64,000 nucleotides of DNA from Candidatus Poribacteria bacterium (GCA_028824125.1 JAPPES010000085.1:79281-143280); one strand, 5' to 3'. Counted from the first letter of the stretch, positions 3,016-48,107 are shown. The notes: generated by a model from the sequence alone, not told the origin. Made by a program: numbers and translations.

Positions 3016-5634
3016 ATGTTAAAAAGACTGAACATCATTTTAATACTTTTATTCGCCTTTAGCTTTAGTGGGACACTGCTGGCAGATGAATCTGCAAATA
3101 AATATTTTCCATCAACGCTTGGAAGTTTCTGGGTTTATGAAGACCAAGATGGTAACGAGTTGACGCGTCATGCGATTGAAGGTGAAGAAATTGCTGGTAA
3201 GACTTTTCCTGCGTTCAATTATGAACCGGAGTTAGAGGACTGGGCAGAATATAGTCCTTTTATTCGTCCGTCTCTATATCAAGTTAGTGATGCAGGAGTC
3301 ACATTGTTTGTAAGAGAAGAGGTCGAAAAGGCAGTCAAAGCACGGCTTACCAAAGAAATAGAGACTGTAATTACAAAGTCTGAGGAAGAAGATCCTTCTT
3401 TTAAGCTTGACTACGATGTGGAAGTGGAAGTACCAAACATATTTTATATTCTGCCGGAGATTGTAACTAAGCAAAAAGAGTGGGAGGCAGTAAAAATAAA
3501 TGCCAAAATCACTACAGAATTTGGTGAAGCCAATTTCAATATTATTGAATCCGGAAAAATACTCGGCACACAATCTGTCAAAACATCTGTTGGCACGTTT
3601 AAAGACTGTTTGAAAGTTGAATACCGCACTGAAACAATCTTGCAAATATCTCCTCCAGACGAAGATGTCGGGTCCCCTGGCGAGTCGATAACAACACTTT
3701 GGTTAGCACCTAACGTGGGGGTTGTCAAGGTCCATCAAAAAGTCGAAGATATGCTTTTAAAAGCTATGCTTGACCTTAAGCTACCATCTGCAGCCACCGT
3801 TAGGACACTTGAATTAACAAAATACGAAATCAAATCAGCTGATACTAAAAGCAGCGAAAACAATTCTATTTCTGTTGTAAAATCTACAGAAGAAAAAGTT
3901 GAAACTGAAAAAGCAAAGTCGTTATCAAACGACACACAGCGTATAAATTATCTTCCCAGTCCGTTGGGAAGTTTTTGGGTGTATGAAGACCAAGATGGTA
4001 ATGAATTGACACGCCGCGCAGTTGAAGGCGAGGAAATAGTGGGTAAGGCATACCAATCCTTTAGTTATGAACCTGAATTAAAAAAATGGATGGATTATAG
4101 TTTCTTTATTCGTCCGTCTCTATATCAAGTTAGTGATGCAGGAGTCACATTGTTTGTAAGAGAAGAGGTCGAAAAAGCAGCCAAAGCACGGTTAAGTAAG
4201 GAAATGGAGTTATTGAGAGGAATAATAGAATTAGATGATCCAGATGCAGCAAACTTCACCTTCATAATTGAAGCAGAAGCACAAGACCAGGTCCATCTAC
4301 TACTCACCCCTGTAATCCCCTACGAAGAATGGGACGTAAATCAAATAAAAGCCAGTCTTAAATTGCAATTTGAAGGTGACCAACCGTCAATAGATTACAC
4401 CATTATAGAAACGGGAATTGTCACCGGAACTGAAGATGTTGAAACAGCTGCAGGTGTATTTGAAGATTGTCTAAAAGTTGAATACCACACAGAAACAACC
4501 GCAATTATCACCCCTGACCCTCGACCTGGCGAGAAAAAATCACCAGGAGAAACTATGACAACTGTATGGTATGCTCCCAACGTCGGAATCGTAAAATTAC
4601 ACCAAAAAAGAAAATACGCATTTTTTGATATGATTCCAGATGATGATAGTTTTCAAAAACCGCCTGATCCAAAACCGATAACGCTTGAATTAAAGAAATA
4701 TGAAATCAAGACAGTTGATCTTGAAAGTGCCAGGAAACAGTCTATTACGACACCCAAGCCACTAAAAGGTGATGCCGAAAAAGGAAAAACTAAAACAAGT
4801 AACGCACAATCCCCGAATTATTTTCCTGGCACATTAGATAGTTTTTGGGTTTATGAAGACCAAGATGGTAATGAATTAACACGCCGTGCTGTTGAAGGTG
4901 AGGAAATTGCTGGTAAAACTTATCCTGCATTCAGTTATGAACCGGAGTTGGAGGATTGGGCAGAATATAGTTGGTTTATTCGCCCTCCTTTGTATCAAGT
5001 GAGTAATGCTGGTATCACACTTGTTGTTAGCGATGAGGTTGAAAAAGCAGTTAAAGCACGCCTTAAGAAAGAGGTAGGTATTCTCACTGACGCAATAAAA
5101 CGGGATGCTCCACTGGACGCAGGTATTGACGCTGATATTAAGGTACAGGGACAAAACCAGTTATTCCTCCTCCCCGACACTATTATTCTTTTCAATGAGG
5201 AGTGGGACGTTAACCAGATTGAAGCAAACGTCAAGATGAAATTTCTGGGTGGAGGTGTCCCAGAGGATCAACAATTGGTAATTGATTTCACGATTTTAGA
5301 AACAGCAATTATCTCTGGTACTGAAACTGTTGAAACACCCGCTGGAAAGTTTGAAAACTGCCTGAAAGTTGAATATCGTACAGAAACTACTGCAGCAATG
5401 ACGCCTGCCCCACCACCCGATGAAGTAGAACCGCCAGGAGAAACCGTAACGACTGTGTGGTATGCTCCAAATGTCGGAATTGTCCAATTTCGTCAGGAAA
5501 CGAATTACATTTTTTTAGAAATGATTCCAGACGATGAAGATCTTCCTGTGCCACCTGGACCTAAAACGAAAACGTTTGAATTAAAGAAATATGAAATCAA
5601 ATCTGAAGAACCAGAAAATGAAGAAAGCAATTAA
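3016..5634 (+). CDS. Secreted protein, paralog family member 4. It is an in-frame fusion of three complete modules under a single signal peptide.
   Basis: The 872-aa product repeats the full module three times, with [14 protein letters not shown] at aa ~35, ~325 and ~610. Each module ends with a (T)LELxKYEIK motif. Low-complexity linkers separate the modules. Confidence 0.75.
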   Translation: MLKRLNIILILLFAFSFSGTLLADESANKYFPSTLGSFWVYEDQDGNELTRHAIEGEEIAGKTFPAFNYEPELEDWAEYSPFIRPSLYQVSDAGVTLFVREEVEKAVKARLTKEIETVITKSEEEDPSFKLDYDVEVEVPNIFYILPEIVTKQKEWEAVKINAKITTEFGEANFNIIESGKILGTQSVKTSVGTFKDCLKVEYRTETILQISPPDEDVGSPGESITTLWLAPNVGVVKVHQKVEDMLLKAMLDLKLPSAATVRTLELTKYEIKSADTKSSENNSISVVKSTEEKVETEKAKSLSNDTQRINYLPSPLGSFWVYEDQDGNELTRRAVEGEEIVGKAYQSFSYEPELKKWMDYSFFIRPSLYQVSDAGVTLFVREEVEKAAKARLSKEMELLRGIIELDDPDAANFTFIIEAEAQDQVHLLLTPVIPYEEWDVNQIKASLKLQFEGDQPSIDYTIIETGIVTGTEDVETAAGVFEDCLKVEYHTETTAIITPDPRPGEKKSPGETMTTVWYAPNVGIVKLHQKRKYAFFDMIPDDDSFQKPPDPKPITLELKKYEIKTVDLESARKQSITTPKPLKGDAEKGKTKTSNAQSPNYFPGTLDSFWVYEDQDGNELTRRAVEGEEIAGKTYPAFSYEPELEDWAEYSWFIRPPLYQVSNAGITLVVSDEVEKAVKARLKKEVGILTDAIKRDAPLDAGIDADIKVQGQNQLFLLPDTIILFNEEWDVNQIEANVKMKFLGGGVPEDQQLVIDFTILETAIISGTETVETPAGKFENCLKVEYRTETTAAMTPAPPPDEVEPPGETVTTVWYAPNVGIVQFRQETNYIFLEMIPDDEDLPVPPGPKTKTFELKKYEIKSEEPENEESN

Positions 5635-25319: not shown

Positions 25320-28300
25320 ATGAATCAGCAGACATCTTCAAAAAATCTGTCCCTTTTTGTCCTTTTGATTATCGGAATAATCAGTTACTGTACTGCTGTT
25401 GGAAATGCTACCCCGCCTGAAATTACACCGGGTGAATTATTAATTCGCCTGACACCAGAAGCATCAACCGATCTACAGCGACTGCAAGTCAAATCTCCCA
25501 TAGCAGCATTGTATGCAAAGCACAGTGTAGAATCTCTGAGATCTATCTTCCCATCTGTCACCCGTTTTTCAAAACATAACGCCAAACTTAAGCGCACCTA
25601 TCTCCTAAGGTTTTCACTCACTGTAGACCTTTCAGCACTTAAAGCAGCATTTGAAAAGAGCGAACTTATTGAGGCGGTCACGTATAACTATTTACGTCCA
25701 ACTTTGGTGAATGAAATTGTTCCCAACGACCCAAAATATCCAGAGCAATGGAGTTTGCCGCTGATAAATTTGCCACAAGCATGGGCAATTGAGAAGGGCA
25801 ACCGTGAAGTGGTTATCGCTATCATCGATTCTGGTATTGACTATAGACACGATGATCTCGCCTCAAAAATTTGGGTAAATCCTGGCGAAATTCCTGATAA
25901 TGGTTTAGATGATGATGGCAACGGTTACGTTGATGATATACATGGATGGGATTTTACCGATGCCCCCAATCTGCAAGCAGAAGGCGATTTCATAGAAGGC
26001 GATAACGAACCAATTGATGAATCTGGGCATGGGACACACGTTGCTGGCATAGCGGGTGCAATGCCAAATAACGGTATCGGTATTGCTGGAGTTGCGTGGA
26101 ATTGCCCGCTGATGGCGGTGCGCGCTGGACTTTCACTCGGTGGCGGTTCTCGTATGCAGGATGACGACTCCGCCGCAGCGATTGTCTACGCCGCTGATAA
26201 CGGTGCGGATATTATTAACATGAGTTGGGGCAGCGCACAACACTCCTTTGTTATCCAAGACGCTATTGATTATGCATATCAACGGGGGGCGGTATTAATA
26301 GGAGCGGCGGGCAATTCAAATGAAGCAGAGAGTATTTTTCCCGCCGGATACCGAAAAGTTATTTCTGTAGCATCAACGAACCAACACAAACAACGTTACT
26401 ACAAATCCAATTTCGGTGCATCTGTGGACATAGGAGCTCCCGGAAACGCTATTCTCAGCACACAAATCGACAACGACTACCGTATTCTTACTGGTACTTC
26501 TATGGCAGCACCGCACGTCGCAGGCGTTGCAGCATTAATGCGAGCAAAACGACCTTCTCTGACCCACGAAGAAGTCCGACAAATACTCACCAGCACTGCC
26601 GATGTGGTTTTGGAAAAAGATAGTGATGAACCTGATCCGAAACTTGCAGGTGCGGGAACCCTCAATGCTGAACGAGCTTTATTAGCAAGTGGTGTCTTAC
26701 AAGCACGAATTCATGCACCGCAAACAAATAGTGGCGGATCAACTTCAATTACATTTATCGGCACTGCAGGAGGTTATAAGTTTAAATCGTGGCAGCTGTT
26801 TTATGGAAGTTCTACTACCCCTACAACTTATGTTCCGTTTACAGACCCTTTATCAACGCAAAAAGTAGCCGAACAGTTAGCCGTATGGGATACGACTGAT
26901 ATACCAGAGGACGTTTACACTGTTCGCCTCGTTGCCACGGGAAGAGATGGTAGCCAAACACACGACCAAGTTGTGTTAACGGTGGACCGCACACCCCCCA
27001 AAGTTTTCTCTGTTACGGCAACTGAGACGTTATACGGAGACAGTTCTTCCACGATTTTCACTTGGGCTACAGACGATGTAACTCGGAATACCTTCTATTT
27101 TCGGCGCAGTGGTCAAATCACGCCTTTTGCTCCTATTGAGGAAAGAGGACTCGCCAAAGAACACTTATTTTCTCTGGAATTGGAAACAGGACAATATCAG
27201 TTTTACATCGCAGCACAAAACACTATCGGATTAAAGACAGTTGATGACAACAATGAGAAGTACTACACAATCGACGTTATTGGCAGTTCTATATCACCTA
27301 ATGGGTTCATTGAAACGGCACTTGACATGCCCCAGCTCCGCCTCGCAAATGTTTCTACTGATTTTGATAAAGATGGCTTACCCGAACTTGTCGGTGCACC
27401 TTTTTCAAATACCGCTGGGGAAAAACTTACGACACCTGACGGTATCGTTTTTTATGAACGATCACCAACAGGCAAATATCAGATAGCGCACAACCTCTCC
27501 AACATAGATTCGCTTGAAATCTTGGATCAAGACATAAATTTAGAAACGTTCACACCGTGGACAGTAGACGACACAGATAAAGATGGCTTGCTGGAAATAC
27601 TTGCTAACGACGAAGATCAAACATTCCTGATAGAAAGTCTTACACCAAATGGTTACCCTGCACAAATTATTTGGGCGACACCGTTTCTTTCAGGCGGAAA
27701 AATCGCAGACTTGGATGGTGATGGTAAAAAGGAAATTGTTGGCGTTGATAACAACAATAACCGGATTCTCATCTTTGAAAATAGAGGAAATAACGTGTAT
27801 GACAGAATTGCTGAGTTAGTTAATCAAACGGAAGGGAAAAATGTCTTTGCGTTAGACTTTGCAATTGACGACTTCAATGTTGATGGGAATGACGACTTAA
27901 TTGTTGGTGATAGTGAAGGGGAACTTTTCATTTATACTGCTACAGCAAATAACACTTTCCACCTCCAGTGGCAAACTCAACTTGGGATAGATGTTAGGCT
28001 ATTAATCTCTGGGGATTTAACCGATGACGGCAGGGCAGAATTTGTTGTTGGTGGCACTGTCTCACCGCCTGATGTGTCTTCCGCTTCACCTATCTGGAAG
28101 TTCCTTGTTTTTACGTATACAGCTGGCAAGTATGTACAGCTCTGGGAACAAGCTATTGCGCCGTATCGACTCCGTGGAAACAGTCTCGCCATAGCTGAAT
28201 TAGATGGAGATGGGGCCAACGAACTTGCCATCATTACACAGCCGAACCTCTACGTGATGAAATGGAACGGAACAACATTTGTACCGACATTTCATCAAAA

Positions 28301-29345
28301 AGTCACTGAAACACCTACGCTCTTCACCGCTGATCTCAATAAAAATGGGTTTCACGAGCTCTATGTTAACTCTGAAGAAGGGCTAAGTTTTATTGAATCT
28401 GCTTTTGCGATGGATAATAACTCTGTTGCTATGCTAACGCCATGGGACGTTTCCGCTACGCCTTTGACTGCAAAGGTCGTTCAGGTTACGTGGAAAACTG
28501 CAGAAGAAACGCAAGTGCCCACCGTCTTTACTATCTATCGCGCGATCGGTGAAAAGAGCGAAGCACCTGCAGGGACTAAGTTTGAGGCAATTGCTAATAA
28601 CCTCACCTTACCCAGATTCTTAGACAGAACGGTTGAAACAGGGACAACTTATTGGTATGCTATCACTGCCAAAGGAGAAACAGGCATAGAAACAGAACGA
28701 ACAAAGGCAATTTCTGCAACACCGCGCCTTGCTCCTAAAATAATCAGTGCTACCTATCAACCTCCGAATTGGATAATTGTCACTTTTGATCGGCAAATGA
28801 ATTTTACAATTAGTGATGAGCGAAGGTATCTTTTGCGTCAGCCAAAACAATTGGGCGGGTTACGGCCAATGTCTGCTATTCGTGACAGAATGGGAACGCG
28901 CGCGCTCTTAGCCTTTGATACAGATAAACTACAAGCACTAATCACCGTTTCAACAAACCAATATGAGATTGCTGTGTCCAATGTAACTGATGTTGATGAA
29001 AACCCGATTAGGGCTACTACTAACTTAGTTGAGGTACAGCAGCGTGCTGCTGAAACAAAAATAAAAGATTTTACACAGTTACGCGTCTATCCAAACCCTG
29101 TTCGTCCGAACATATCAGACAAAGGCGTAGTCACCTTTAATAAAGTGCCTGTAGGAACCCGCATTCAACTTTTCACACCTAAGGGTGAACTGCTTGAGAA
29201 CTTGAACGTCACCGAAAGCGATGGAAACAGTAAACAGTGGTGGTTGACAAACGGCAGCATCGGTGATATAGCTACCGGTATATATATTTATATACTTGAA
29301 TTTGAAGCGCAGAAAAAAGTTGGGAAGATTGCTGTGATTAAGTAA
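25320..29345 (+). CDS. Giant secreted subtilisin-like serine protease (S8) with FG-GAP/VCBS beta-propeller repeats, an Fn3-like region and a T9SS-type C-terminal sorting domain.
   Basis: The catalytic triad motifs AIIDSGIDY (Asp), HGTHVAG (His) and GTSMAAPHVAG (Ser) are present. FG-GAP repeats are of the DxDxDG type (DFDKDGLPELV and others). The C-terminal YPNP...GIYIYILEF stretch matches the Por_Secre_tail pattern. Confidence 0.8.
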   Translation: MNQQTSSKNLSLFVLLIIGIISYCTAVGNATPPEITPGELLIRLTPEASTDLQRLQVKSPIAALYAKHSVESLRSIFPSVTRFSKHNAKLKRTYLLRFSLTVDLSALKAAFEKSELIEAVTYNYLRPTLVNEIVPNDPKYPEQWSLPLINLPQAWAIEKGNREVVIAIIDSGIDYRHDDLASKIWVNPGEIPDNGLDDDGNGYVDDIHGWDFTDAPNLQAEGDFIEGDNEPIDESGHGTHVAGIAGAMPNNGIGIAGVAWNCPLMAVRAGLSLGGGSRMQDDDSAAAIVYAADNGADIINMSWGSAQHSFVIQDAIDYAYQRGAVLIGAAGNSNEAESIFPAGYRKVISVASTNQHKQRYYKSNFGASVDIGAPGNAILSTQIDNDYRILTGTSMAAPHVAGVAALMRAKRPSLTHEEVRQILTSTADVVLEKDSDEPDPKLAGAGTLNAERALLASGVLQARIHAPQTNSGGSTSITFIGTAGGYKFKSWQLFYGSSTTPTTYVPFTDPLSTQKVAEQLAVWDTTDIPEDVYTVRLVATGRDGSQTHDQVVLTVDRTPPKVFSVTATETLYGDSSSTIFTWATDDVTRNTFYFRRSGQITPFAPIEERGLAKEHLFSLELETGQYQFYIAAQNTIGLKTVDDNNEKYYTIDVIGSSISPNGFIETALDMPQLRLANVSTDFDKDGLPELVGAPFSNTAGEKLTTPDGIVFYERSPTGKYQIAHNLSNIDSLEILDQDINLETFTPWTVDDTDKDGLLEILANDEDQTFLIESLTPNGYPAQIIWATPFLSGGKIADLDGDGKKEIVGVDNNNNRILIFENRGNNVYDRIAELVNQTEGKNVFALDFAIDDFNVDGNDDLIVGDSEGELFIYTATANNTFHLQWQTQLGIDVRLLISGDLTDDGRAEFVVGGTVSPPDVSSASPIWKFLVFTYTAGKYVQLWEQAIAPYRLRGNSLAIAELDGDGANELAIITQPNLYVMKWNGTTFVPTFHQKVTETPTLFTADLNKNGFHELYVNSEEGLSFIESAFAMDNNSVAMLTPWDVSATPLTAKVVQVTWKTAEETQVPTVFTIYRAIGEKSEAPAGTKFEAIANNLTLPRFLDRTVETGTTYWYAITAKGETGIETERTKAISATPRLAPKIISATYQPPNWIIVTFDRQMNFTISDERRYLLRQPKQLGGLRPMSAIRDRMGTRALLAFDTDKLQALITVSTNQYEIAVSNVTDVDENPIRATTNLVEVQQRAAETKIKDFTQLRVYPNPVRPNISDKGVVTFNKVPVGTRIQLFTPKGELLENLNVTESDGNSKQWWLTNGSIGDIATGIYIYILEFEAQKKVGKIAVIK

Positions 29346-34438: not shown

Positions 34439-35874
34439 ATGTCACAATCCCCTAATATTCTTTTTCTACTTACCGATCAGCAACGTTTTGATTCATTAGG
34501 TTGCAACGGTGCCCCTGTTTGCCAAACGTCTGCGGTGGATAATATTGCTGCAACAGGGATGCGTTTCACAAAAGCTTATACACCCATTGCACTCTGTTCA
34601 CCTGCACGGGGTTCATTACTTACAGGACTTTATCCACATAATCATGGGCAGCTCTCAAACATGGGTAATTTTAATGCAGTATTTGCAAATCAGATTCTTG
34701 ACAAACCTGCATATCCGCAACTCCTAAAAGCCGCCGGATATAATGTGGCATGTGTTGGTAAATGGCATCTTGCTAAACAGGGAGATACTGAGTTCTGGGG
34801 TTATGACAAGTGGCACCCATATAGCGAATGGCATCAATGGCTCCGAGACGATGGGATTGATTTTAGGATTGACCGTGATGCTGTGCAACCTTTGGAATGG
34901 GGGGAGAGGCTCCGTTCTACGGCAGGCTTCCACTTCCTGTTGAACGCACGATGGAGGCGTGGACTGCAGATAAAACGATTGAATTAATCAACGGATATAC
35001 CAATTCCGAGCAACCCTTCATGATTGCGGCTAATTTCTTCGGACCGCATTTTCCCTACGCTGTGCCAGAACCTTACGATACTATGTACGACCCTGATTCT
35101 GTTGAACGTTGGGGGAACTTTGATGAACAGTTCATCAACAAACCACTTATTCAGCAGAAAGAGATGCTTCGCTGGAACGCGAGTCATTTGACGTGGCCTG
35201 ACTGGCAGAAAGTCATCGCTGCGTATTGGGGATTTTGCACCTTTATTGACGACCAAGTTAAACGAATAATTGATTGCCTTGAAGAGAACGGTTTAGCAGA
35301 AAACACTATCGTTATCTTTTCAACTGACCACGGCGATATGCTCGGTAGCCACCGACTTTTCAACAAAGGTTTTCACATGTACGAGGAGACACACCATATT
35401 CCACTTATGGTCCGATGGCCAGGGGTGACATCGCCTGGAACGACCTGTGATGAATTTGTGAACCTTGTTGACCTTATGCCAACATTCTTGGAAATTGGTG
35501 GTGCCACAATGCCTGATAATCTCGACGGAAGGTCTATTGTACCGATCCTCAAAGGAGAAACATTAGCAGATTGGCCCGACGACGTTTTCGCTGAATTTCA
35601 TGGATACGAACCAACACTTGCATCTGTACGGATGGTGCGCACCGACTCTTGGAAATACGTCTACAATCCATATAGTGAAGACGAACTCTACGATATGCAA
35701 AGTGACCCGCATGAACTTCATAATCTTGCAACACATCTCGGGTACAAACACGTGCTTCGCCGCATGAAAGACCGTATGGTCAAGCGGTTACGCGAAACGA
35801 AGGATAATATCGTTATGGAAGGTGGATGGCAGAGCAATTCGTTTGATCTGCTTGTGTCTGATCGGGAAAGATAG
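34439..35874 (+). pseudogene. Sulfatase (arylsulfatase family) split by a frameshift in a 6-G homopolymer at about 34899-34904. It may be a sequencing error or a genuine frameshift.
   Basis: ORF 34439..34987 carries LLTDQQRFD and the formylglycine motif CSPARGSLLTG. ORF 34897..35874 continues the sulfatase fold (FSTDHGDMLG). The two frames meet at ggaatggggggagagg. Confidence 0.7.
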
Positions 35875-40123: not shown

Positions 40124-41074
40124 TTACCGACTCAACATTTTCTCACGATGCCATGCTAAAGCACTTTGAGCAGGAAAAAGTTCTTGTTGTTCTGGCAATA
40201 ATATCGCTTTACCATTTAATGCTTTTAACATCCATTCTGTTGGTCCTCGTTCAGTCATCAATTCTGAAACAATAACATTATACGACTCGTCTACGGAAAA
40301 CAAGTATCTATCAAACGCCCAATGGTGTAGTTTGCATAGAGAAATTCCATTTCGAACATCGTCATTGTTTGATTTATTGAACGGAATTATGTGTGCGGCT
40401 TCAGTAACACTTTCACCATTCAACGTTAAAATCTGCAACTCACAGACAGCACAAGTATAGTCGTAAATCCTCATGATTGTGCGGCGAAAACCAGGTTCTC
40501 GAATCTTTTTTTCACTTTCAATTGGTTCCTCAAGTTCTGTTGAGAAATCGTGTTGAACATAATCCAATAGTTCCTTGCTAAAACCACTGATCTGTTGTTC
40601 TTCTGAAATAACACTTTGGATTTCATTCGTCAAACCGAGGAAATATTTGTCAATAAGTGTTTTCCGTAATATCTCTCTTTCCAATGGTTGAATTAGTAGA
40701 GTAAAGAGTTCTTCATCAAGACTTGCATGTGATATCATCTTTCGTAGTTGAGAAAAAGTTTTTATTTGAGAAACGACTTCTAATGCTTTCTCATAACCAG
40801 AATTTGGGTGATGATGCCAAAAACTACGGCTCTTTAGGTGGAAGAATGGTAAAGCAGGATTTGGTTTCCTATTTGTGACGCAATTCCAATACTTTAGGAA
40901 TTTCTCAACCAAATGGGGCGATGGAGGAATTTTGTTAATTTCAATCTGTTCTTGCTCAATCATTTCAATAATTGTTAACAAGAGTACTGGTTGATGTGGG
41001 GCATTACCATGTGCCCTATCTATTCGCAAATTCCTAAACTCATTGATGTATTTTCTCAGGATCTCTTCATTCAT
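40124..41074 (-). CDS. HNH-family nuclease (HNH_2 type) with an uncharacterised ~190-aa N-terminal domain. It may be restriction- or defence-related.
   Basis: The C-terminal segment YDYTCAVCELQ...EAAHIIPFN...NGISLCKLHHWAFDRYLFSVDE matches HNH_2 signatures. The N-terminus contains NAPHQPVLLLTIIEMI. Confidence 0.6.
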   Translation of the reverse strand: MNEEILRKYINEFRNLRIDRAHGNAPHQPVLLLTIIEMIEQEQIEINKIPPSPHLVEKFLKYWNCVTNRKPNPALPFFHLKSRSFWHHHPNSGYEKALEVVSQIKTFSQLRKMISHASLDEELFTLLIQPLEREILRKTLIDKYFLGLTNEIQSVISEEQQISGFSKELLDYVQHDFSTELEEPIESEKKIREPGFRRTIMRIYDYTCAVCELQILTLNGESVTEAAHIIPFNKSNNDDVRNGISLCKLHHWAFDRYLFSVDESYNVIVSELMTERGPTEWMLKALNGKAILLPEQQELFPAQSALAWHREKMLSR

Positions 41075-41124: not shown

Positions 41125-43635
41125 CTACTTCCGCAACAACATCTTCCGAGTCTCCGTAAAATCCCCCGCAGAAAAGGTATAAAAATAGAGACCACTCGCA
41201 ACCGCTTCCCCGTAATCATTACGACCATCCCAATATGCGGCACTGCTCCGACCATAATACGTCCCCGCAGATTGATGCCCCAAATCTAACCTTCGGATAA
41301 GGTTTCCGCGCATATCGTATATTGTGATTGTAACATTAGTATCAGTCGCTAACTGATACGGTATCCATGTCTCAGGATTGAACGGGTTCGGATAGTTTTC
41401 CAAGAGGCGAGTTTCAGTTGGCATCACGGCTGCGAGCATTTGTTCGAGTACCGCTATACCTTGGACTACGGTTGCGTCTTTATTAGGCAATCGCTTTGCC
41501 ATATCAATCCACTGCTGTAAAGTTTTCGCATTGCGTGAGGCTATAAGATACGATTGTGTTGGTGCAGCATTCGCTTCAGCATTAATTTCATTTACAACCA
41601 ATAGCAGATCAAGAATATCCACAACCCCATCCGCATTGACATCAGGATTTGGATGGATGCTGCCGATGATGGTTTTGCCGAAGTTGGCAGCAACAAGCAC
41701 AAGATCGGTCGTATCAACCGTTCCATCTCCATTTATGTCGGCGCGGTTTTCGCCCGAAGACGGTTCCCCTGCCCGTAGCACATATCCTTGACGGGTGATA
41801 TTCCCGTGAACATCAATAACCTGAAGCCTAATTGTGTTTATCGGAAGTGCTGTTAAGGGGGCAATGTCAAATTCAACTACGGTACTCTGTGCGTCTATCC
41901 GTTTGCAATGATATAATTTTGTGCCGTGCGCCGGGTCATCGTTAGTTGTTGAGACAAGCAGCTGAACCTGATGGATACCATCAAAATCAGTTATATAAAA
42001 TATAATTGGGAAACTGGTAGCGTTTGCGGGATAAGTTTCTGAAGTTAACATCTGCAGCGTCGTCAGGTCGTTAAATGCTGGTTGGCCACTATTAAAAAAC
42101 CGACTCACGCTCAACCATTCTGTCGCACATCCGGAAAACCTATCTGGAGCCGCACCGTAAGACATAATATATTTATCGTCTCGGAAGTCGTGATCCAACC
42201 CGAAAGCATGCCCGAGTTCATGTGCAGTGACAATTACGCCTGTCTCACCGTCAAAACACTCTCCGGATGCGGGAATAACTGCGTAGCCTCCATGTGATTT
42301 TACCTGCTGTTCTAATCCAAGCCAATTACTACCACCGACTCCACACACATCTTTGTGTTCAATAGCTTGGCTACTGACCTCCGCAACAATTAGATAAACG
42401 TGCTTTTCCATATCAAACTGTGAAGCAACTTCAGCATGAATCTTATTGGTAGTGTTGGTATGATAGTAAACGTCATTGGAGTTTCCATCAATACGATAAA
42501 CAACAGTTTGCTCGTTCTCATCAGTTTCAAAAGTAAATGTTTTTCTGCCGAATCCGTTCGCCTGCATCTGGTCAGCATAAAGGTCTTGAACATCTCTGAT
42601 GAGGCGATCCAGTTTTGCCCACATATCAGGTTGTGCAGTACGGTTGCGTGGAATGAAATAGATAATTCTCACCAAATCAGGCATAACAGACTCATAAGGT
42701 GTAATATCCCAGAGTCGTAACGTGCCATCGCTGCCACCACTGGTTAAGTAAGTCCCATCCGGTGAAAAAGCGGTAGCATTGACCCATCCAACGTGCCCGC
42801 TCAGCGTTGCGATATTCACACCATTTTGAATTGTCCAGAGGTTTACCACTTCATAATCTGTGCTGGCAAATTTGCTGCTATCTGGTGAAAAACTGAGGTC
42901 AGTGACTGTACTGTTAGTCGGCAAAATGCCGACCTGTTCCCAATTCGGTAGTTTCCACAGTTTAACGCCGCCGTTATACCCAGCACTTGCAAGTGTTTGG
43001 TCGTTAGGTGAAAACTTAACAGTAGATATAAAATCGGGATCACCTTGAAATTGGGCGATATCTTGTTGGTTTTGGAGATTCCTGACTTTTATCTGTCCGC
43101 TTGCATCCCCTGTGGCAAGGAATTTCCCATCGGTAGAAAACGCTACAGTCAAAACCCATTCGCCATGCCTTAGTGTCATAATTTCTCTGAGTGTATGAAT
43201 ATCCCATATCTTTACGTGTCGTCCTGCAGTTGCTATTTTTTGTCCATCGGACGAGAAGGCAATCGCTTTGATTTGGGATCGAGCATGATCGGTAATATGC
43301 GAAAGCGTCGAGAGGTGGCGTTTGCCTGGAACATTCCATAATTTGAAGGTAAAATCATCGCTGCTACTAACGAGTCGCTGTCCGTCCGGAGAAAAAGCGA
43401 TGGAATTGATAGTATCTTTATGGCTGCCTAAGGTTGTCACACTGCCCTCTGCCAAATCCCATAATTTAACTGTGTGATTTCCGCCAGCACTTGCAATAAG
43501 CGAAGAGTTGACTGGGGAATACGCCACTGCTTGGACACTGCCGCCGTGGGTTAATGCAGTGTGGTCTTGCGCAAGGGTAGTCAATGGAAATAGTATCAGA
43601 ACGGTTATTGTGAGAAAAATGTATTCGCGGCGCAT
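41125..43635 (-). CDS. Secreted multidomain protein with WD40 repeats, a metzincin zinc protease (HELGHAFGLDHD), dockerin type-I repeats and a T9SS-type C-terminal sorting domain.
   Basis: The product has a signal peptide. At least six WD40 units (GHxxxVxxxAFSPDG...WD) are present. A HExxHxxGxxHD motif is present. Dockerin repeats are DINGDGTVDTTDL and DVNADGVVDILDL. The C-terminus reads YPNPFNPET...IYDMRGNLIRRL...GLYFYTF. Confidence 0.75.
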   Translation of the reverse strand: MRREYIFLTITVLILFPLTTLAQDHTALTHGGSVQAVAYSPVNSSLIASAGGNHTVKLWDLAEGSVTTLGSHKDTINSIAFSPDGQRLVSSSDDFTFKLWNVPGKRHLSTLSHITDHARSQIKAIAFSSDGQKIATAGRHVKIWDIHTLREIMTLRHGEWVLTVAFSTDGKFLATGDASGQIKVRNLQNQQDIAQFQGDPDFISTVKFSPNDQTLASAGYNGGVKLWKLPNWEQVGILPTNSTVTDLSFSPDSSKFASTDYEVVNLWTIQNGVNIATLSGHVGWVNATAFSPDGTYLTSGGSDGTLRLWDITPYESVMPDLVRIIYFIPRNRTAQPDMWAKLDRLIRDVQDLYADQMQANGFGRKTFTFETDENEQTVVYRIDGNSNDVYYHTNTTNKIHAEVASQFDMEKHVYLIVAEVSSQAIEHKDVCGVGGSNWLGLEQQVKSHGGYAVIPASGECFDGETGVIVTAHELGHAFGLDHDFRDDKYIMSYGAAPDRFSGCATEWLSVSRFFNSGQPAFNDLTTLQMLTSETYPANATSFPIIFYITDFDGIHQVQLLVSTTNDDPAHGTKLYHCKRIDAQSTVVEFDIAPLTALPINTIRLQVIDVHGNITRQGYVLRAGEPSSGENRADINGDGTVDTTDLVLVAANFGKTIIGSIHPNPDVNADGVVDILDLLLVVNEINAEANAAPTQSYLIASRNAKTLQQWIDMAKRLPNKDATVVQGIAVLEQMLAAVMPTETRLLENYPNPFNPETWIPYQLATDTNVTITIYDMRGNLIRRLDLGHQSAGTYYGRSSAAYWDGRNDYGEAVASGLYFYTFSAGDFTETRKMLLRK

Positions 43636-43797
43636 AAGATGTGTTTGTAGAAAATCTAAATTCTAATACATTCCTGTGGATTTGAGGCGTTTGTAATCAC
43701 GTAATTCATTGCGTCTCTTACATTAGACTGAACATGCTCCTTTTTTATAGTAAAACTTACAATTAATGGGACACTTATGAGCATCAAACTTTTAGTA

Positions 43798-43831
43798 AAT
43801 CAACGGTATGAATGCCTTATGGCATTCCCCG
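43798..43831. repeat. Family-B palindromic repeat, reverse orientation.
   Basis: The sequence is aatcaacggtatgaatgccttatggcattccccg. Confidence 0.6.
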
Positions 43832-43834
43832 TGT

Positions 43835-44070
43835 CTCATCGGCACAAACTAAATGAAGTTTAAATAAATATTTCGGTAAGGGGGCGAGGTTAGGAAACCT
43901 CGCCAGCAGCAGGTGTACATCTCTGCTGGCGAGGTTTCCTAACCTCGCTAAATTACCCAATTTATTTTTTTATCTTCATAAAGTTTGTGCTACAACCTCT
44001 ATTGTCCGTAATGTTCCAAAATAGATTTATCAAAGTGTCCCAATAATTTCAAAGTTCACTATAGTTAGCG
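43835..44070. repeat. Family-A MITE with an internal 26-bp perfect-stem hairpin and an 85-bp tail near-identical to 7651-7735.
   Basis: The left end is gcacaaactaaatgaagtttaaataaatatttcggtaa. The hairpin is gcgaggttaggaaacctcgccagcag/ctgctggcgaggtttcctaacctcgc. The right end is ttcataaagtttgtgctacaacctctattgtccg... Confidence 0.65.
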
Positions 44071-44271
44071 AGCTTTTCTCTATGGAATAGACACTGTTTT
44101 GCTTTACATTATAACCGAAAGTGCCATTAATTCATAGACAAAAAACGGAGTTTTCTGTTATTATAAATTTCATACCTTACGAAAGATCAGACAATATACT
44201 TGCTAAATACGTTATGCTTGATTCGATAGTCAAATTCTTTCAAACACCTGTAAACTGGGAGGAAAAGGCAT

Positions 44272-46109: not shown

Positions 46110-48107
46110 GTGAAACGTTTTTTTCTTTTAGCAGGAATCGCAATCGTGATTCTTTGCCAGTTGAGTTGTTCTTCTGATGAAGAGCAAGCAAAAATTAAAA
46201 ATCCCGCAATCACTGATGCTACAGATGGATTTATCGCTGCACCGGTGGTTGGTGAAGTTAAACTCGAAAGCATGTATGAAGATGAAGTTCGCAGACTTGC
46301 GACAAAAACGCCTATTGAAATGATCACAGTGATTGAAGGCACAAGTAAAGTGATTGTTGAGGCAGAATTTCGCAGAGTTAAAAATTCCAGGTTTGGATTT
46401 CCACTTTATGAATGTGTCCTGACAGATGAGGCAGTTGCAGCAATGGGTGGAGTTGCGAAAGGAATGTCCGGCAGTCCGGTTGGCACTTCTGGACGGGTTT
46501 TCGGGGCACTTGCGTATGGAGATAATTGGGCAAAAACACCACATCGGTTCTTGGTAACACCAATTGAGGCAATGGAGGCCACACTGGATCACCAAACATT
46601 TGGCGAATTTTTGAATCCTCCCGCTGCACCCGGTGCTGTCGTGAACGCCACCTATACCGCAGTGAAAACACCTATTACGATTTCTGGAGTTGACTCTAAC
46701 AGGCTGCAACAACTCTCTTCACACCTCGCGGATACACGATTTAATAATGTTGAATTCTTTTCCCGCTTCGGTGGAGCACCTGGAGCACCTCCGGCGAATG
46801 CATCGCCTAACCTTTCAGCAGGGGACATGATCGGTGTCGCTCCTGTAACGGGAGATGTTTTCAACTTTATAGGTTTTGGGACTGTGACACAGGTTTATGG
46901 CGATAAATTTGTTGCATTCGGTCATGAAATGTTCCGTGAAGGAAAATCATCACTACCAGTATATAGGGCAGTCGTGGATATAATTGTTCCTCATTTAGAG
47001 GCATCTTATAAATCCTCATCAGCTTATGGAAATCCGATCGGCACGATAACGAAAGACCTCAGAGCCGGAATTGTTGGCGAACTTGGCAAATTACCGCCGA
47101 TGATTCCTGTAACAGTTACATATCAACCTGTCAATACGCCAGAACCAGTTCAAACACATCACAAGGTCGCTTACGGTCAAGAATGGGCAATACCAATTGT
47201 CGCTGCTGCAACTTTGGATTCTGTTCGCAGTGAGGTTAGTCCGGGAACTATTGAGGCAAACGTAGTGATTAGTTTTAAAGAGACTGATAATGTCTATACA
47301 GAATCTTTCAGGACTATTGCACCAGATCCGTTTGAAGCTGTATTGGGAAACATGGACATCATTGTTGAGTCATTTACCAATATTCTTGCAAATGGTGCAG
47401 GCAGAGCAACAATAGATGAAATTAACATCTCTCTCATTGACATTCCGAACATTCTCCATACAGAGATTACCGACATTCATGTTATAGGGGAAGTCAAGCA
47501 AGGTGAAGAGGCAACTTTTGTTGTTGAGATGTTACCCCATTGGAGTGCTGCAGGTAAGAATCGCAAAATGTATAGAGAAGTGAAACTGCAGATTCCTGAA
47601 AATTTCATTTCTGGACCAGCAAACTTATCTATAGCCGCTGCAACTGAATATGGCTTTAATCCGTTCAGTAATCTATTTGCCCCATCCCCAGAAAATTTAG
47701 ATGAGCTGATTGGACAACTGAAGGATATCCAGTTTGATAAAGGATTAATCCTTGTGACGCTTGCTACATTGGAGGAGGAGGAGCCTGAACAAATAGATCC
47801 TGCTTTAGAGGCATTTTTCGTAGAGTTCTTTGAAGCACTTTTCGCAGACTTATTTGATGTTCCACCTGAAGATGGAGAAACCCCACCTGAAGATGGTGAA
47901 TTACCACCTGAAGATGGTGAAATGATTGAAATGATTGATCAAGAAGAGCTGATGGATGACCTGGCACCAACCCCGCGTCCGGTCCCTATTACTGGTACTG
48001 CGCTTGTTGTCTATCGCTTCATCGTAACAGGGGATACAGAAATAGAAATTGAAATTCAACCTATTGAAGTTGAACCGGAAACTGAAGTTGAACCAAAGGC
48101 TGAGTAA
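46110..48107 (+). CDS. Lipoprotein with SpoIVB/S55-like serine-peptidase motifs in apparently permuted order and a C-terminal acidic PPEDGE tandem repeat.
   Basis: A lipobox LSC|S is present. GMSGSPVGTSGRVFGALAYG, an S55 Ser-motif-like segment, lies at aa ~118. IGFGTVTQVYGDKFVAFGHEM, an S55 His-region-like segment, lies at aa ~255. PPEDGE is repeated three times near the C-terminus. Confidence 0.45.
   Translation: MKRFFLLAGIAIVILCQLSCSSDEEQAKIKNPAITDATDGFIAAPVVGEVKLESMYEDEVRRLATKTPIEMITVIEGTSKVIVEAEFRRVKNSRFGFPLYECVLTDEAVAAMGGVAKGMSGSPVGTSGRVFGALAYGDNWAKTPHRFLVTPIEAMEATLDHQTFGEFLNPPAAPGAVVNATYTAVKTPITISGVDSNRLQQLSSHLADTRFNNVEFFSRFGGAPGAPPANASPNLSAGDMIGVAPVTGDVFNFIGFGTVTQVYGDKFVAFGHEMFREGKSSLPVYRAVVDIIVPHLEASYKSSSAYGNPIGTITKDLRAGIVGELGKLPPMIPVTVTYQPVNTPEPVQTHHKVAYGQEWAIPIVAAATLDSVRSEVSPGTIEANVVISFKETDNVYTESFRTIAPDPFEAVLGNMDIIVESFTNILANGAGRATIDEINISLIDIPNILHTEITDIHVIGEVKQGEEATFVVEMLPHWSAAGKNRKMYREVKLQIPENFISGPANLSIAAATEYGFNPFSNLFAPSPENLDELIGQLKDIQFDKGLILVTLATLEEEEPEQIDPALEAFFVEFFEALFADLFDVPPEDGETPPEDGELPPEDGEMIEMIDQEELMDDLAPTPRPVPITGTALVVYRFIVTGDTEIEIEIQPIEVEPETEVEPKAE

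Follow-up and report, generated by a model that had tools for sequence, protein, structure and literature searches.

OgpA (Amuc_1119) and Amuc_1438, with which the gut bacterium Akkermansia muciniphila cuts mucins, were shown experimentally to be O-glycopeptidases, which cut next to O-glycosylated Ser/Thr residues of host glycoproteins and consist of a catalytic domain and a β-sandwich with the active-site cleft located between the two (PMC7518263, PMC9513282). Poribacteria are among the dominant, as yet uncultured sponge symbionts with abundant eukaryote-like WD40 and leucine-rich repeat (LRR) proteins that lack an assigned mechanism. Their WD40 proteins often carry a Por-type C-terminal domain (CTD), and the export route of such proteins was posed as a question (Kamke et al., 2014; PMC3909097). 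For Porphyromonas, translocation across the outer membrane is described as being signalled by such a domain, which is then removed at the surface (PMC8545088). Here we analysed a gene on the minus strand (41125..43635) of a 64,000-nucleotide stretch from Candidatus Poribacteria bacterium (GCA_028824125.1 JAPPES010000085.1:79281-143280; the whole stretch is called the window, and positions are counted from its first letter), the product of which joins WD40 repeats, a metzincin of the OgpA/Amuc_1438 type, a type-I dockerin and a CTD similar to that of type A cargo of the T9SS (type IX secretion system). We propose that it is an exported zinc endopeptidase and a client of a phylum-wide cohesin-dockerin surface-protein system, a reading to which we assign a probability of roughly 0.55.

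The open reading frame (ORF) starts with ATG, encodes 836 amino acids (aa) and appears in the ORF listing exactly as an earlier note on this DNA, made from the sequence, had delimited it. That note had seen a signal peptide, about seven WD40 repeats, a zinc-binding metzincin motif in the middle, two type-I dockerin repeats and a C-terminal sorting domain, and all of these parts were recovered; the dockerin and metzincin assignments, which it had singled out for checking by a domain search, are both statistically supported. Structure prediction, which it had also suggested, yielded AlphaFold2 models of the propeller, the metzincin with its sandwich, the dockerin helices and the CTD sandwich. 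The protein was split into parts for scanning because full-length Pfam and PDB scans were dominated by WD40 matches, and residue invariance was judged in 59 aligned homologs, down to 57% identity. The features are as follows.

41125..43635, minus strand: whole gene, predicted exported multidomain zinc metalloprotease of 836 aa (stop codon 41125-41127)
43570..43635, minus strand: putative Sec-type signal peptide, residues 1-22, MRREYIFLTITVLILFPLTTLA with the junction before QD (inspection)
42700..43563, minus strand: seven-bladed WD40 β-propeller, residues ~25-312 (PF00400 and model)
42061..42678, minus strand: metzincin catalytic domain of the OgpA/Amuc_1438 type (PF12044), residues ~320-525 (profile, phmmer and Foldseek)
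42187..42222, minus strand: zinc-binding/catalytic motif HELGHAFGLDHD, residues 472-483 (sequence and conservation)
42154..42165, minus strand: candidate Met-turn M491-S492-Y493-G494 (family invariance)
41761..42060, minus strand: β-sandwich, residues ~526-625, packed against the catalytic domain (confident two-domain model)
41578..41745, minus strand: type-I dockerin, residues ~631-686, with two Ca-binding loops (D633-D644 and D665-D676) and a helix after each
41404..41562, minus strand: conserved helical linker, residues ~692-744, three helices (model), part of the recurrent dockerin-linker-CTD cassette
41128..41403, minus strand: T9SS type-A-like C-terminal β-sandwich (CTD), residues 745-836, NYPNPFNPETWIPYQL to TRKMLLRK (profiles and model)
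43636..44271, no strand assigned: upstream intergenic region of 636 bp, divergent from folD, presumed promoter region (ORF map)

The protease and its repeat partners

At the N-terminus, the hydrophobic segment MRREYIFLTITVLILFPLTTLA, followed by QDHT, was read as a signal peptide by inspection; residues 3-15 are modelled as a helix with a low predicted local distance difference test score (pLDDT), and the AQ(D/E)HT junction after it is conserved across the family. PF00400 assigns seven repeats to the propeller (E 2e-50; 167.5 bits, cutoff 27), WD40 proteins of the PDB match it by sequence at up to E 2e-128 (2YMU), and its model shows 28 strands forming seven four-stranded blades over residues 25-310, mostly at pLDDT >90.

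The motif HELGHAFGLDHD is the only HExxHxxGxxH in the six frames of the window and is located on and just past a helix (residues 463-477). H472, E473, H476, H482 and D483 are invariant, and G479 is kept in at least 90% of the homologs. The candidate Met-turn, M491-S-Y-G, is also invariant and follows the third histidine by nine residues, a spacing that resembles that of the matrixins. To judge from these sequence features the protein is very probably an active zinc enzyme; a pseudoprotease was considered and rejected in view of the invariant catalytic residues. Among Pfam families, PF12044 (Metallopep; 34.2 bits, cutoff 27, E 1.4e-8) fits the catalytic region best and is also precomputed on most homologs, and the closest solved structures by sequence are 8DEK and 8DF2 (phmmer, E 7e-8), aligned from the first β-strand to the third histidine. 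For residues 320-625, AlphaFold2 modelling with 54 diverse paralogs gave a pLDDT of 94.9 and a predicted template-modelling score (pTM) of 0.93, and the only strong Foldseek matches of this model in the PDB are OgpA (6Z2D/O/P/Q) and Amuc_1438 (E 1.4e-14 to 3e-13, TM 0.63-0.66, probability 1.00). These alignments span 349-362 columns, gaps included, for a query of 306 residues, so that the β-sandwich appears to be included in the match. The next matches are about ten orders of magnitude weaker and cover only ~100-140 residues of immunoglobulin-like or sandwich proteins. The top Pfam family, the Foldseek matches and the shared catalytic-plus-sandwich layout thus place the protease, by sequence and fold, among the metzincins of the OgpA/Amuc_1438 (PF12044) type. 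The earlier note had labelled it reprolysin/M12-like, and this label gives way to the OgpA/Amuc_1438 type: Reprolysin_3 (26.6 bits against 22.4) and Reprolysin_4 (25.1 against 22) pass marginally, Reprolysin_5 (26.6 against 27), Reprolysin_2 and the weakly matching Peptidase_M10 stay below their cutoffs, ADAM17 sequences match at E ~1, and the best M12B structure found by Foldseek is ecarin (E 2.4e-3, TMq 0.33). An M12B assignment is thus unconvincing, and filing the protein there was rejected.

The region comprising the catalytic domain and the sandwich recurs as a cassette in many other proteins. A word-indexed search found 112 paralogs, with the cassette alone, with C-terminal LRRs, with partial or full WD40 repeats on either side, with a dockerin, or with a dockerin and a CTD. 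With phmmer, run exhaustively on 1.84 billion cluster representatives, 1,782 clusters matched at E<=1e-3, 642 of them at E<=1e-30; the cassette lies anywhere from residue ~30 to ~1,700 in proteins of 206-2,340 aa. Among 142 representatives, classified approximately by simple sequence signatures, the zinc motif is intact in 124, dockerin loops are present in 66 and an NPFNP CTD in 76, and LRRs (~67) or WD40 repeats (~33) stand on either flank of the cassette. Because one catalytic cassette is recurrently paired with interchangeable protein-binding repeats, the WD40 propeller could act as a substrate-targeting exosite, a proposal drawn from these sequence pairings to which we give even odds. The earlier note had regarded the combination of a dockerin with WD40 repeats and a sorting tag as very unusual. 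Within its lineage, however, the protein is one member of a very large modular family that fuses the protease cassette to WD40 or LRR repeats, dockerin and CTD, and WD40 repeats with a Por-type CTD were already published for Poribacteria (PMC3909097). Neither the OgpA-like identity of the protease nor its systematic fusion to WD40 repeats or LRRs was found described in the literature searched, coverage of which was incomplete.

The dockerin and candidate cohesin partners

The Dockerin_1 profile (PF00404, cutoff 22.9 bits) scores 48.9 bits on the protein at E 7.5e-13, with DINGDGTVDTTD and DVNADGVVDILD as the two loops. D633, N635, D637, G638 and D644 of the first loop and D665, N667, G670 and D676 of the second are invariant, helices are modelled at residues 642-650 and 674-683, and the best dockerin match in the PDB is 2Y3N_B, all of which points to a bona fide type-I dockerin. 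The earlier note had reasoned that a dockerin implies a cohesin-bearing partner and had proposed a search for cohesins in the genome; candidate partners were found in the lineage, including the genomes of close relatives, and not within the window. The dockerin-linker-CTD cassette (residues 626-836) occurs in 4,579 proteins at E<=1e-6, and the named ones are all poribacterial. Its linker, with helices modelled at residues 695-698, 703-714 and 721-737, is present as the same segment in these proteins and in the paralogs of the protease. The cargo attached to the cassette comprises WD40, LRR, Big_1/invasin, LDL-receptor-B/YWTD and cohesin (PF00963) domains, and six cassette proteins exceed the Pfam cohesin cutoff (32-48 bits against 24.1; poribacterial cohesins overall score 32-72 bits). 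A profile of poribacterial cohesin regions matches only cellulosomal cohesins in the PDB, namely ScaB (E 9e-13) and ScaA of 2Y3N (2Y3N_A), and in 2Y3N this ScaA cohesin is paired with the dockerin chain that best matches the dockerin under study. With a cohesin-only profile, 276 cohesin stretches were found in 185,579 species-representative genomes, often several per genome; of the 80 best, 79 carry a Poribacteria title. At least six cohesin-bearing genomes or contigs also encode orthologs of the protease, 57-79% identical to it:

OZ241980.1: cohesin and ortholog P0015, 76% identical
OZ242381.1: cohesin and ortholog P0027
OZ220722.1: cohesin and ortholog P0067
CBDBPM010000002.1: cohesin and ortholog P0117
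CBDAUI010000001.1: cohesin and ortholog P0103
JAPPIG010000100.1: cohesin locus L022 and ortholog P0009, 79% identical, both on this 176-kb contig

The cohesin ORFs encode 230-1,490 aa, and most start with a hydrophobic signal-like segment and follow the order cargo, one cohesin, dockerin, CTD. A single cohesin is present in 93 of 96 such ORFs and two cohesins in the other three. Three cohesin-bearing proteins (L071, L073 and L080) are collinear paralogs of the protease, 47-49% identical over ~820 residues, and differ by one insertion of ~185 residues, consisting of a cohesin and a second dockerin, between the dockerin and the linker. In two genomes, the gene of such an extended paralog stands in a series of WD40 genes and follows, at a distance of 3-4 kb, an upstream gene for a cohesin protein that lacks a dockerin; the products of these upstream genes are Coh-Coh-X-CTD (JAJEJA010000092.1, 693 aa; L082 3479-5560) and WD40-Coh-X-CTD (PYJC01000173.1, 949 aa; L078 2933-5782). 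On their domain order, these two dockerin-less proteins are candidate anchoring scaffoldins. Across 78 cohesin loci, 16 have a metzincin cassette within ±4 kb (in the same ORF at 9, in a neighbouring gene at 8, with both kinds at 1), and a further 23 hold another dockerin-CTD gene. Because protease and cohesins co-occur, are fused and lie in the same gene neighbourhoods, docking of the dockerin to cohesins is proposed and, as far as sequence relationships go, is somewhat favoured. By the same relationships the protease belongs to a conserved modular system and is not a one-off chimera.

The place of the family among clustered genes for secreted WD40, cohesin and dockerin proteins would also suit an enzyme that processes or sheds the surface proteins of the bacterium itself, with the propeller recognising poribacterial WD40/LRR/CTD cargo and the protease trimming it or releasing it from the assembly; indeed, the C-terminal cassette is common to thousands of putative substrates. 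However, housekeeping genes surround this gene, for which neither a conserved cleavage motif nor any genetic coupling was shown, and the closest characterised enzymes act on host glycoproteins. We regard a role in self-processing as improbable and retain the reading of a client protease of the cohesin-dockerin system.

Further observations concern the modules themselves. Two dockerin flavours occur in the family, one with a long inter-loop linker ending in PNPDVN and one with a short linker and the generic FGQxGQNxADVNGDG. In a comparison with P0119, P0121 and L071, the former is found in the protein under study and comes first of the two dockerins in the extended paralogs; the latter comes second in these paralogs and is the sole dockerin of P0119, a full-length relative of 57% identity. 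Cohesin specificities may differ between the flavours, or a domain may have been lost when the two dockerins recombined. The two candidate scaffoldins share a region X of ~300 residues between cohesin and CTD, with conserved motifs such as AFGT..TYF.L.VQYPTLT and no Pfam match. An ORF of 1424 aa at locus L033 (OZ241980.1; the ORF containing 4001-4381) encodes LRRs and a YW(T/S)-type repeat region followed by cohesin, dockerin and CTD; the YW(T/S) repeats resemble LDL-receptor class B, as assigned from sequence and motif counts, and the same genome encodes the ortholog of 76% identity. In P0317 (L002 10001-11095), a dockerin-like Ca-binding loop, DVNSDGVVDIGDL, is inserted within the cohesin; the contig comes from the TARA metagenome record TARA_SAMEA6039926, the source of which may not be a sponge.

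The literature searched, with incomplete coverage, contained nothing relevant on Poribacteria with dockerin or cohesin, where one unrelated salt-lake preprint came up, or on sponge symbionts with both, and no description of a phylum-wide cohesin-dockerin-CTD system. The analysis of poribacterial WD40 proteins mentions neither dockerin nor peptidase or protease (Kamke et al., 2014; PMC3909097), and dockerin is not mentioned in a study of Latescibacteria (PMC4454575).

Probable export, inheritance and genomic setting

The CTD is matched by FlgD_ig (E 1.8e-10, 41 bits), PF18962 Por_Secre_tail (28.9 bits against 27) and TIGR04183 (28.9 bits against 23), and is modelled as a β-sandwich with strands over residues 756-834. 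With a mean column conservation of 0.79 in 119 relatives, it is the most conserved segment of the protein (catalytic domain 0.75, WD40 0.72, β-sandwich 0.70, dockerin 0.68); the motif N-x-PNPFNP-x-TW-x-PYQL within NYPNPFNPETWIPYQL is invariant, and Y748, E755 and I758 are kept in at least 90% of the homologs. The CTD is interpreted as a sorting signal because such conservation is expected of a segment that is read by a conserved machine. Four cysteines (C431, C460, C503 and C577) are invariant, consistent with an extracytoplasmic protein. From every system characterised so far, dockerins and cohesins are known as extracellular modules. An extracytoplasmic location is highly probable, and a location in the outer membrane or at the surface through the CTD is favoured with less assurance.

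FlgD_ig scores above Por_Secre_tail, which barely exceeds its cutoff, and Por genes are reported missing in Poribacteria (PMC3909097), as would fit a periplasmic or outer-membrane-associated envelope protease in which the CTD is a structural immunoglobulin-like (FlgD-like) domain and carries no export signal. Against this stand the conservation of the CTD, the highest in the protein, and its invariant motif, its presence in thousands of signal-peptide proteins with adhesion-type domains, a pattern expected of a sorting signal, and the extracellular nature of the dockerin and cohesin modules, and we consider an envelope protease improbable. The protein is thus read as an exported one, likely to be surface-associated through its CTD, by a route that may or may not be the canonical T9SS. 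The export claimed in the earlier note is judged probable; its T9SS-like C-terminal domain is borne out by profile and fold, whereas a CTD alone is no proof of T9SS export in a phylum for which Por genes are reported absent (PMC3909097).

In the ENA, metagenome assembly ERZ23495471 (ROBB21-1_SAMN13943213) has an identical protein, encoded on a contig of 150 kb, and more than 120 clusters cover 98-100% of the query at 56-97% identity, all with ~835 aa. Where source names are given, they are all Candidatus Poribacteria bacterium, and the annotations are generic ('dockerin type I domain-containing', 'T9SS type A sorting domain-containing' or 'hypothetical'). Alignment gave at least 119 full-length relatives in the same identity range, with every module conserved, and an ortholog of 97% identity lies on a 5.24-Mb contig in the same gene order, with folD and an SDR gene on one side and HNH, GT9 and DUF4159 genes on the other. 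Because the architecture is conserved in 119 relatives and the synteny is kept on the 5.24-Mb contig, these comparisons identify the gene as a vertically inherited and selectively maintained gene of a sponge-symbiont phylum. A recent chimera or an assembly artefact is ruled out by the collinear architecture in the relatives, the synteny and a GC content that resembles the rest of the window. The earlier note had seen a chimera resembling the eukaryote-like mosaics of symbiont lineages; the symbiont lineage agrees with the named relatives, all Poribacteria, whereas the chimera is replaced by a conserved orthologous family. The family was already present in public databases under generic names, as the WD40-CTD combination was in print (PMC3909097).

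Within the window, this is the sole gene with a metzincin motif, dockerin loops or an NPFNP C-terminal motif, and ten larger neighbouring ORFs that were scanned contain no domain related to the protease system. A consensus promoter scan of the upstream region gave no more sites than shuffled sequence, and a terminator scan from the protease gene to the downstream HNH gene gave none above the shuffled background. This HNH_2 endonuclease gene (40124-41074, minus strand, 316 aa; PF13391, E 5.6e-14) follows 50 bp downstream on the same strand, is paired with the protease gene on the 5.24-Mb contig as well, has no terminator-like site between the two genes, and shows a weak precomputed match to the ScoMcrA DNA sulfur-binding domain; it may be type IV restriction-like, and co-transcription with the protease gene is possible. 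Further genes of the window are as follows.

25320-29345, plus strand: second large putative secreted protease of 1341 aa, a subtilase (S8, E 7e-55) with FG-GAP/VCBS-like repeats and without the dockerin-CTD cassette
46110-48107, plus strand: protein of 665 aa with an N-terminal hydrophobic, Cys-containing signal-like segment, a sub-threshold SpoIVB/S55 match (23.2 bits against 25) and a very acidic, Pro/Glu-rich C-terminal region with repeats (PPEDGE...); no Pfam family on record
~34439-35874, plus strand: overlapping sulfatase ORFs of 182 aa and 307 aa (both PF00884), which suggest a frameshifted or split gene or a sequencing error
3016-5634, plus strand: protein of 872 aa, the only Pfam matches of which are DUF3108-like and DUF3108 (PF21347, three stretches)

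Proposed role and comparison with known systems

In the proposed mechanism, the Sec signal peptide would carry the protein to the periplasm, from where the type-A-like CTD could direct passage through or attachment to the outer membrane by a T9SS-like or divergent pathway, the structural T9SS genes being reported absent from Poribacteria. The Ca-binding dockerin would then plug into cohesins of other CTD-bearing poribacterial surface proteins, the candidate partners being the two-cohesin, dockerin-less scaffoldin-like proteins and the longer, cohesin-bearing paralogs of the same protease, so that the enzyme would be held in multi-protein assemblies at the cell surface. There, extracellular host or particulate proteins would be cleaved in the cleft that separates the metzincin from the β-sandwich, and mucin-like or O-glycosylated matrix or surface proteins of the sponge are the favoured substrates because the only close solved relatives are O-glycopeptidases. 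The N-terminal propeller, as an exosite for protein binding, would pick out the substrate or tether it, a role that LRRs appear to take over in paralogs, to judge from the modular swapping.

Several points weigh against this mechanism. The full-length AlphaFold2 model (pTM 0.54) is uninformative on the placement of the propeller relative to the active site. The identity to OgpA and Amuc_1438 is just 14-17%, with a root-mean-square deviation of 5.6-7 Å in the Foldseek alignments. Amuc_1438 Y171 and Y217, which are implicated in glycan binding, as Phe/Trp are in OgpA (PMC7518263, PMC9513282), face a gap and V469, respectively, in poorly aligned, low-confidence columns of the HMMER alignment; dependence on O-glycans is thus a guess, because these tyrosines lack an aromatic counterpart in the alignment, at odds somewhat short of even. 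A hidden Markov model (HMM) scan of the 64-kb window at E<=10 brought up no cohesin, whereas the same HMM finds 78 of 78 positives. Many microbes are known to have dockerin-like modules and no cohesin partner for them. The T9SS is described as confined to Bacteroidota or the Fibrobacterota-Chlorobiota-Bacteroidota (FCB) group, and single-cell genomes of Poribacteria are reported to have yielded no Por structural genes (Kamke et al., 2014; PMC3909097).

Some of these points would agree with a general nutritional metzincin that acts independently of glycans, with the dockerin as a Ca-stabilised linker, the propeller as a non-specific adhesion or solubility module and no cohesin assembly: the zinc motif is generic, two reprolysin profiles pass their cutoffs beside the weak Peptidase_M10, conservation of the Amuc_1438 tyrosines implicated in glycan binding is not evident, and the window combines housekeeping neighbours with the lack of a cohesin. 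However, the fold match to the O-glycopeptidases reaches past the catalytic core, the Ca ligands of the dockerin are invariant, and cohesins are abundant in the lineage, fused to protease paralogs and clustered with metzincin genes, which makes a plain nutritional protease unlikely. Even in this case, the protein would define a new subfamily of OgpA-like metzincins. We therefore keep the surface-displayed client protease as the preferred reading. A broader extension of it is doubtful, namely a phylum-wide, non-cellulolytic cohesin-dockerin 'surface interactome', in which thousands of cassette proteins, many with a cohesin, would be exported in a CTD-dependent manner by a route other than the canonical Bacteroidota T9SS and would join up at the outer membrane, as self-assembled chains or networks, displaying WD40/LRR binders and OgpA-like metzincins to the sponge host, with the protein under study as a cohesin-less client protease and the repeats as substrate-targeting exosites.

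The family is of interest in that it unites a repeat domain with a relative of enzymes that cut host O-glycoproteins, a dockerin with candidate cohesins in the lineage, and a conserved CTD; the strong conservation of the latter implies a dedicated sorting machine in a phylum that is reported to lack the T9SS. If the proposal is true, cohesin-dockerin assembly would extend to a Gram-negative animal symbiont and to cargo that is not carbohydrate-active, and the recombinant protease, a WD40 bait and cohesin-dockerin pairs would provide a handle on the interaction of the symbiont with the matrix or cells of the sponge. Should the surface interactome exist, the eukaryote-like repeats of Poribacteria would gain a concrete job as exosites of host-glycoprotein proteases.

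Among known systems, OgpA and Amuc_1438 (8DEK/8DF2) share with the poribacterial protein the metzincin HExxHxxGxxH motif followed by a β-sandwich, their Met-turn having a candidate counterpart in M491-S-Y-G, and Amuc_1438, with its C-terminal carbohydrate-binding module, also joins the catalytic unit to a separate targeting module. By contrast, the targeting module of the poribacterial protein is a protein-binding WD40 propeller, a dockerin and a CTD are added, the host is a sponge and not a mammalian gut, and, at the low identity given above, the glycan-binding aromatics are not evidently kept.

The duplicated dockerin motif of Ca-binding loop and helix is canonical for the cohesin-dockerin systems of Firmicutes (scaffoldins of Acetivibrio and Bacteroides cellulosolvens), and the two-cohesin, dockerin-less poribacterial proteins resemble anchoring scaffoldins. 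Modules of NagH and NagJ, from the glycosidase complexes of Clostridium perfringens, are among the weak matches; these are host-glycan-degrading enzymes that assemble via such modules. Unlike in the Firmicutes, the phylum is Gram-negative, anchoring would use the T9SS-like CTD and not SLH domains or sortase, and most poribacterial cohesin proteins combine one cohesin with a dockerin of their own, which suggests chains or networks and not one large scaffoldin. The cargo also differs from that of cellulosomes, as WD40, LRR, LDL-receptor-B, Big_1 and metzincin domains were seen and no glycoside hydrolases. A cellulosome in the strict sense was rejected on the latter ground and because at most two cohesins per ORF were seen, although the system may work like one.

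With type A cargo of the Bacteroidota T9SS, such as gingipains and M6-like or M36 metalloproteases, the protein shares a putative signal peptide, a C-terminal β-sandwich of ~90 residues that matches TIGR04183/PF18962, and a protease as cargo; it differs in that the organism is outside the Bacteroidota, Por structural genes are reported absent, and the CTD has an invariant motif of its own, NPFNPETWIPYQL, preceded by the conserved helical linker and the dockerin. The WD40 proteins described from the same phylum likewise combine a signal peptide, WD40 repeats and a TIGR04183-type CTD (Kamke et al., 2014; PMC3909097), whereas here the repeats are joined to an enzyme, suggesting a concrete role for some of them. 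Taken together, and by analogy, the protein would work most like an O-glycopeptidase of the OgpA/Amuc_1438 type that is equipped with a targeting domain, displayed in a cellulosome-like manner and provided with a gingipain-style sorting tag.

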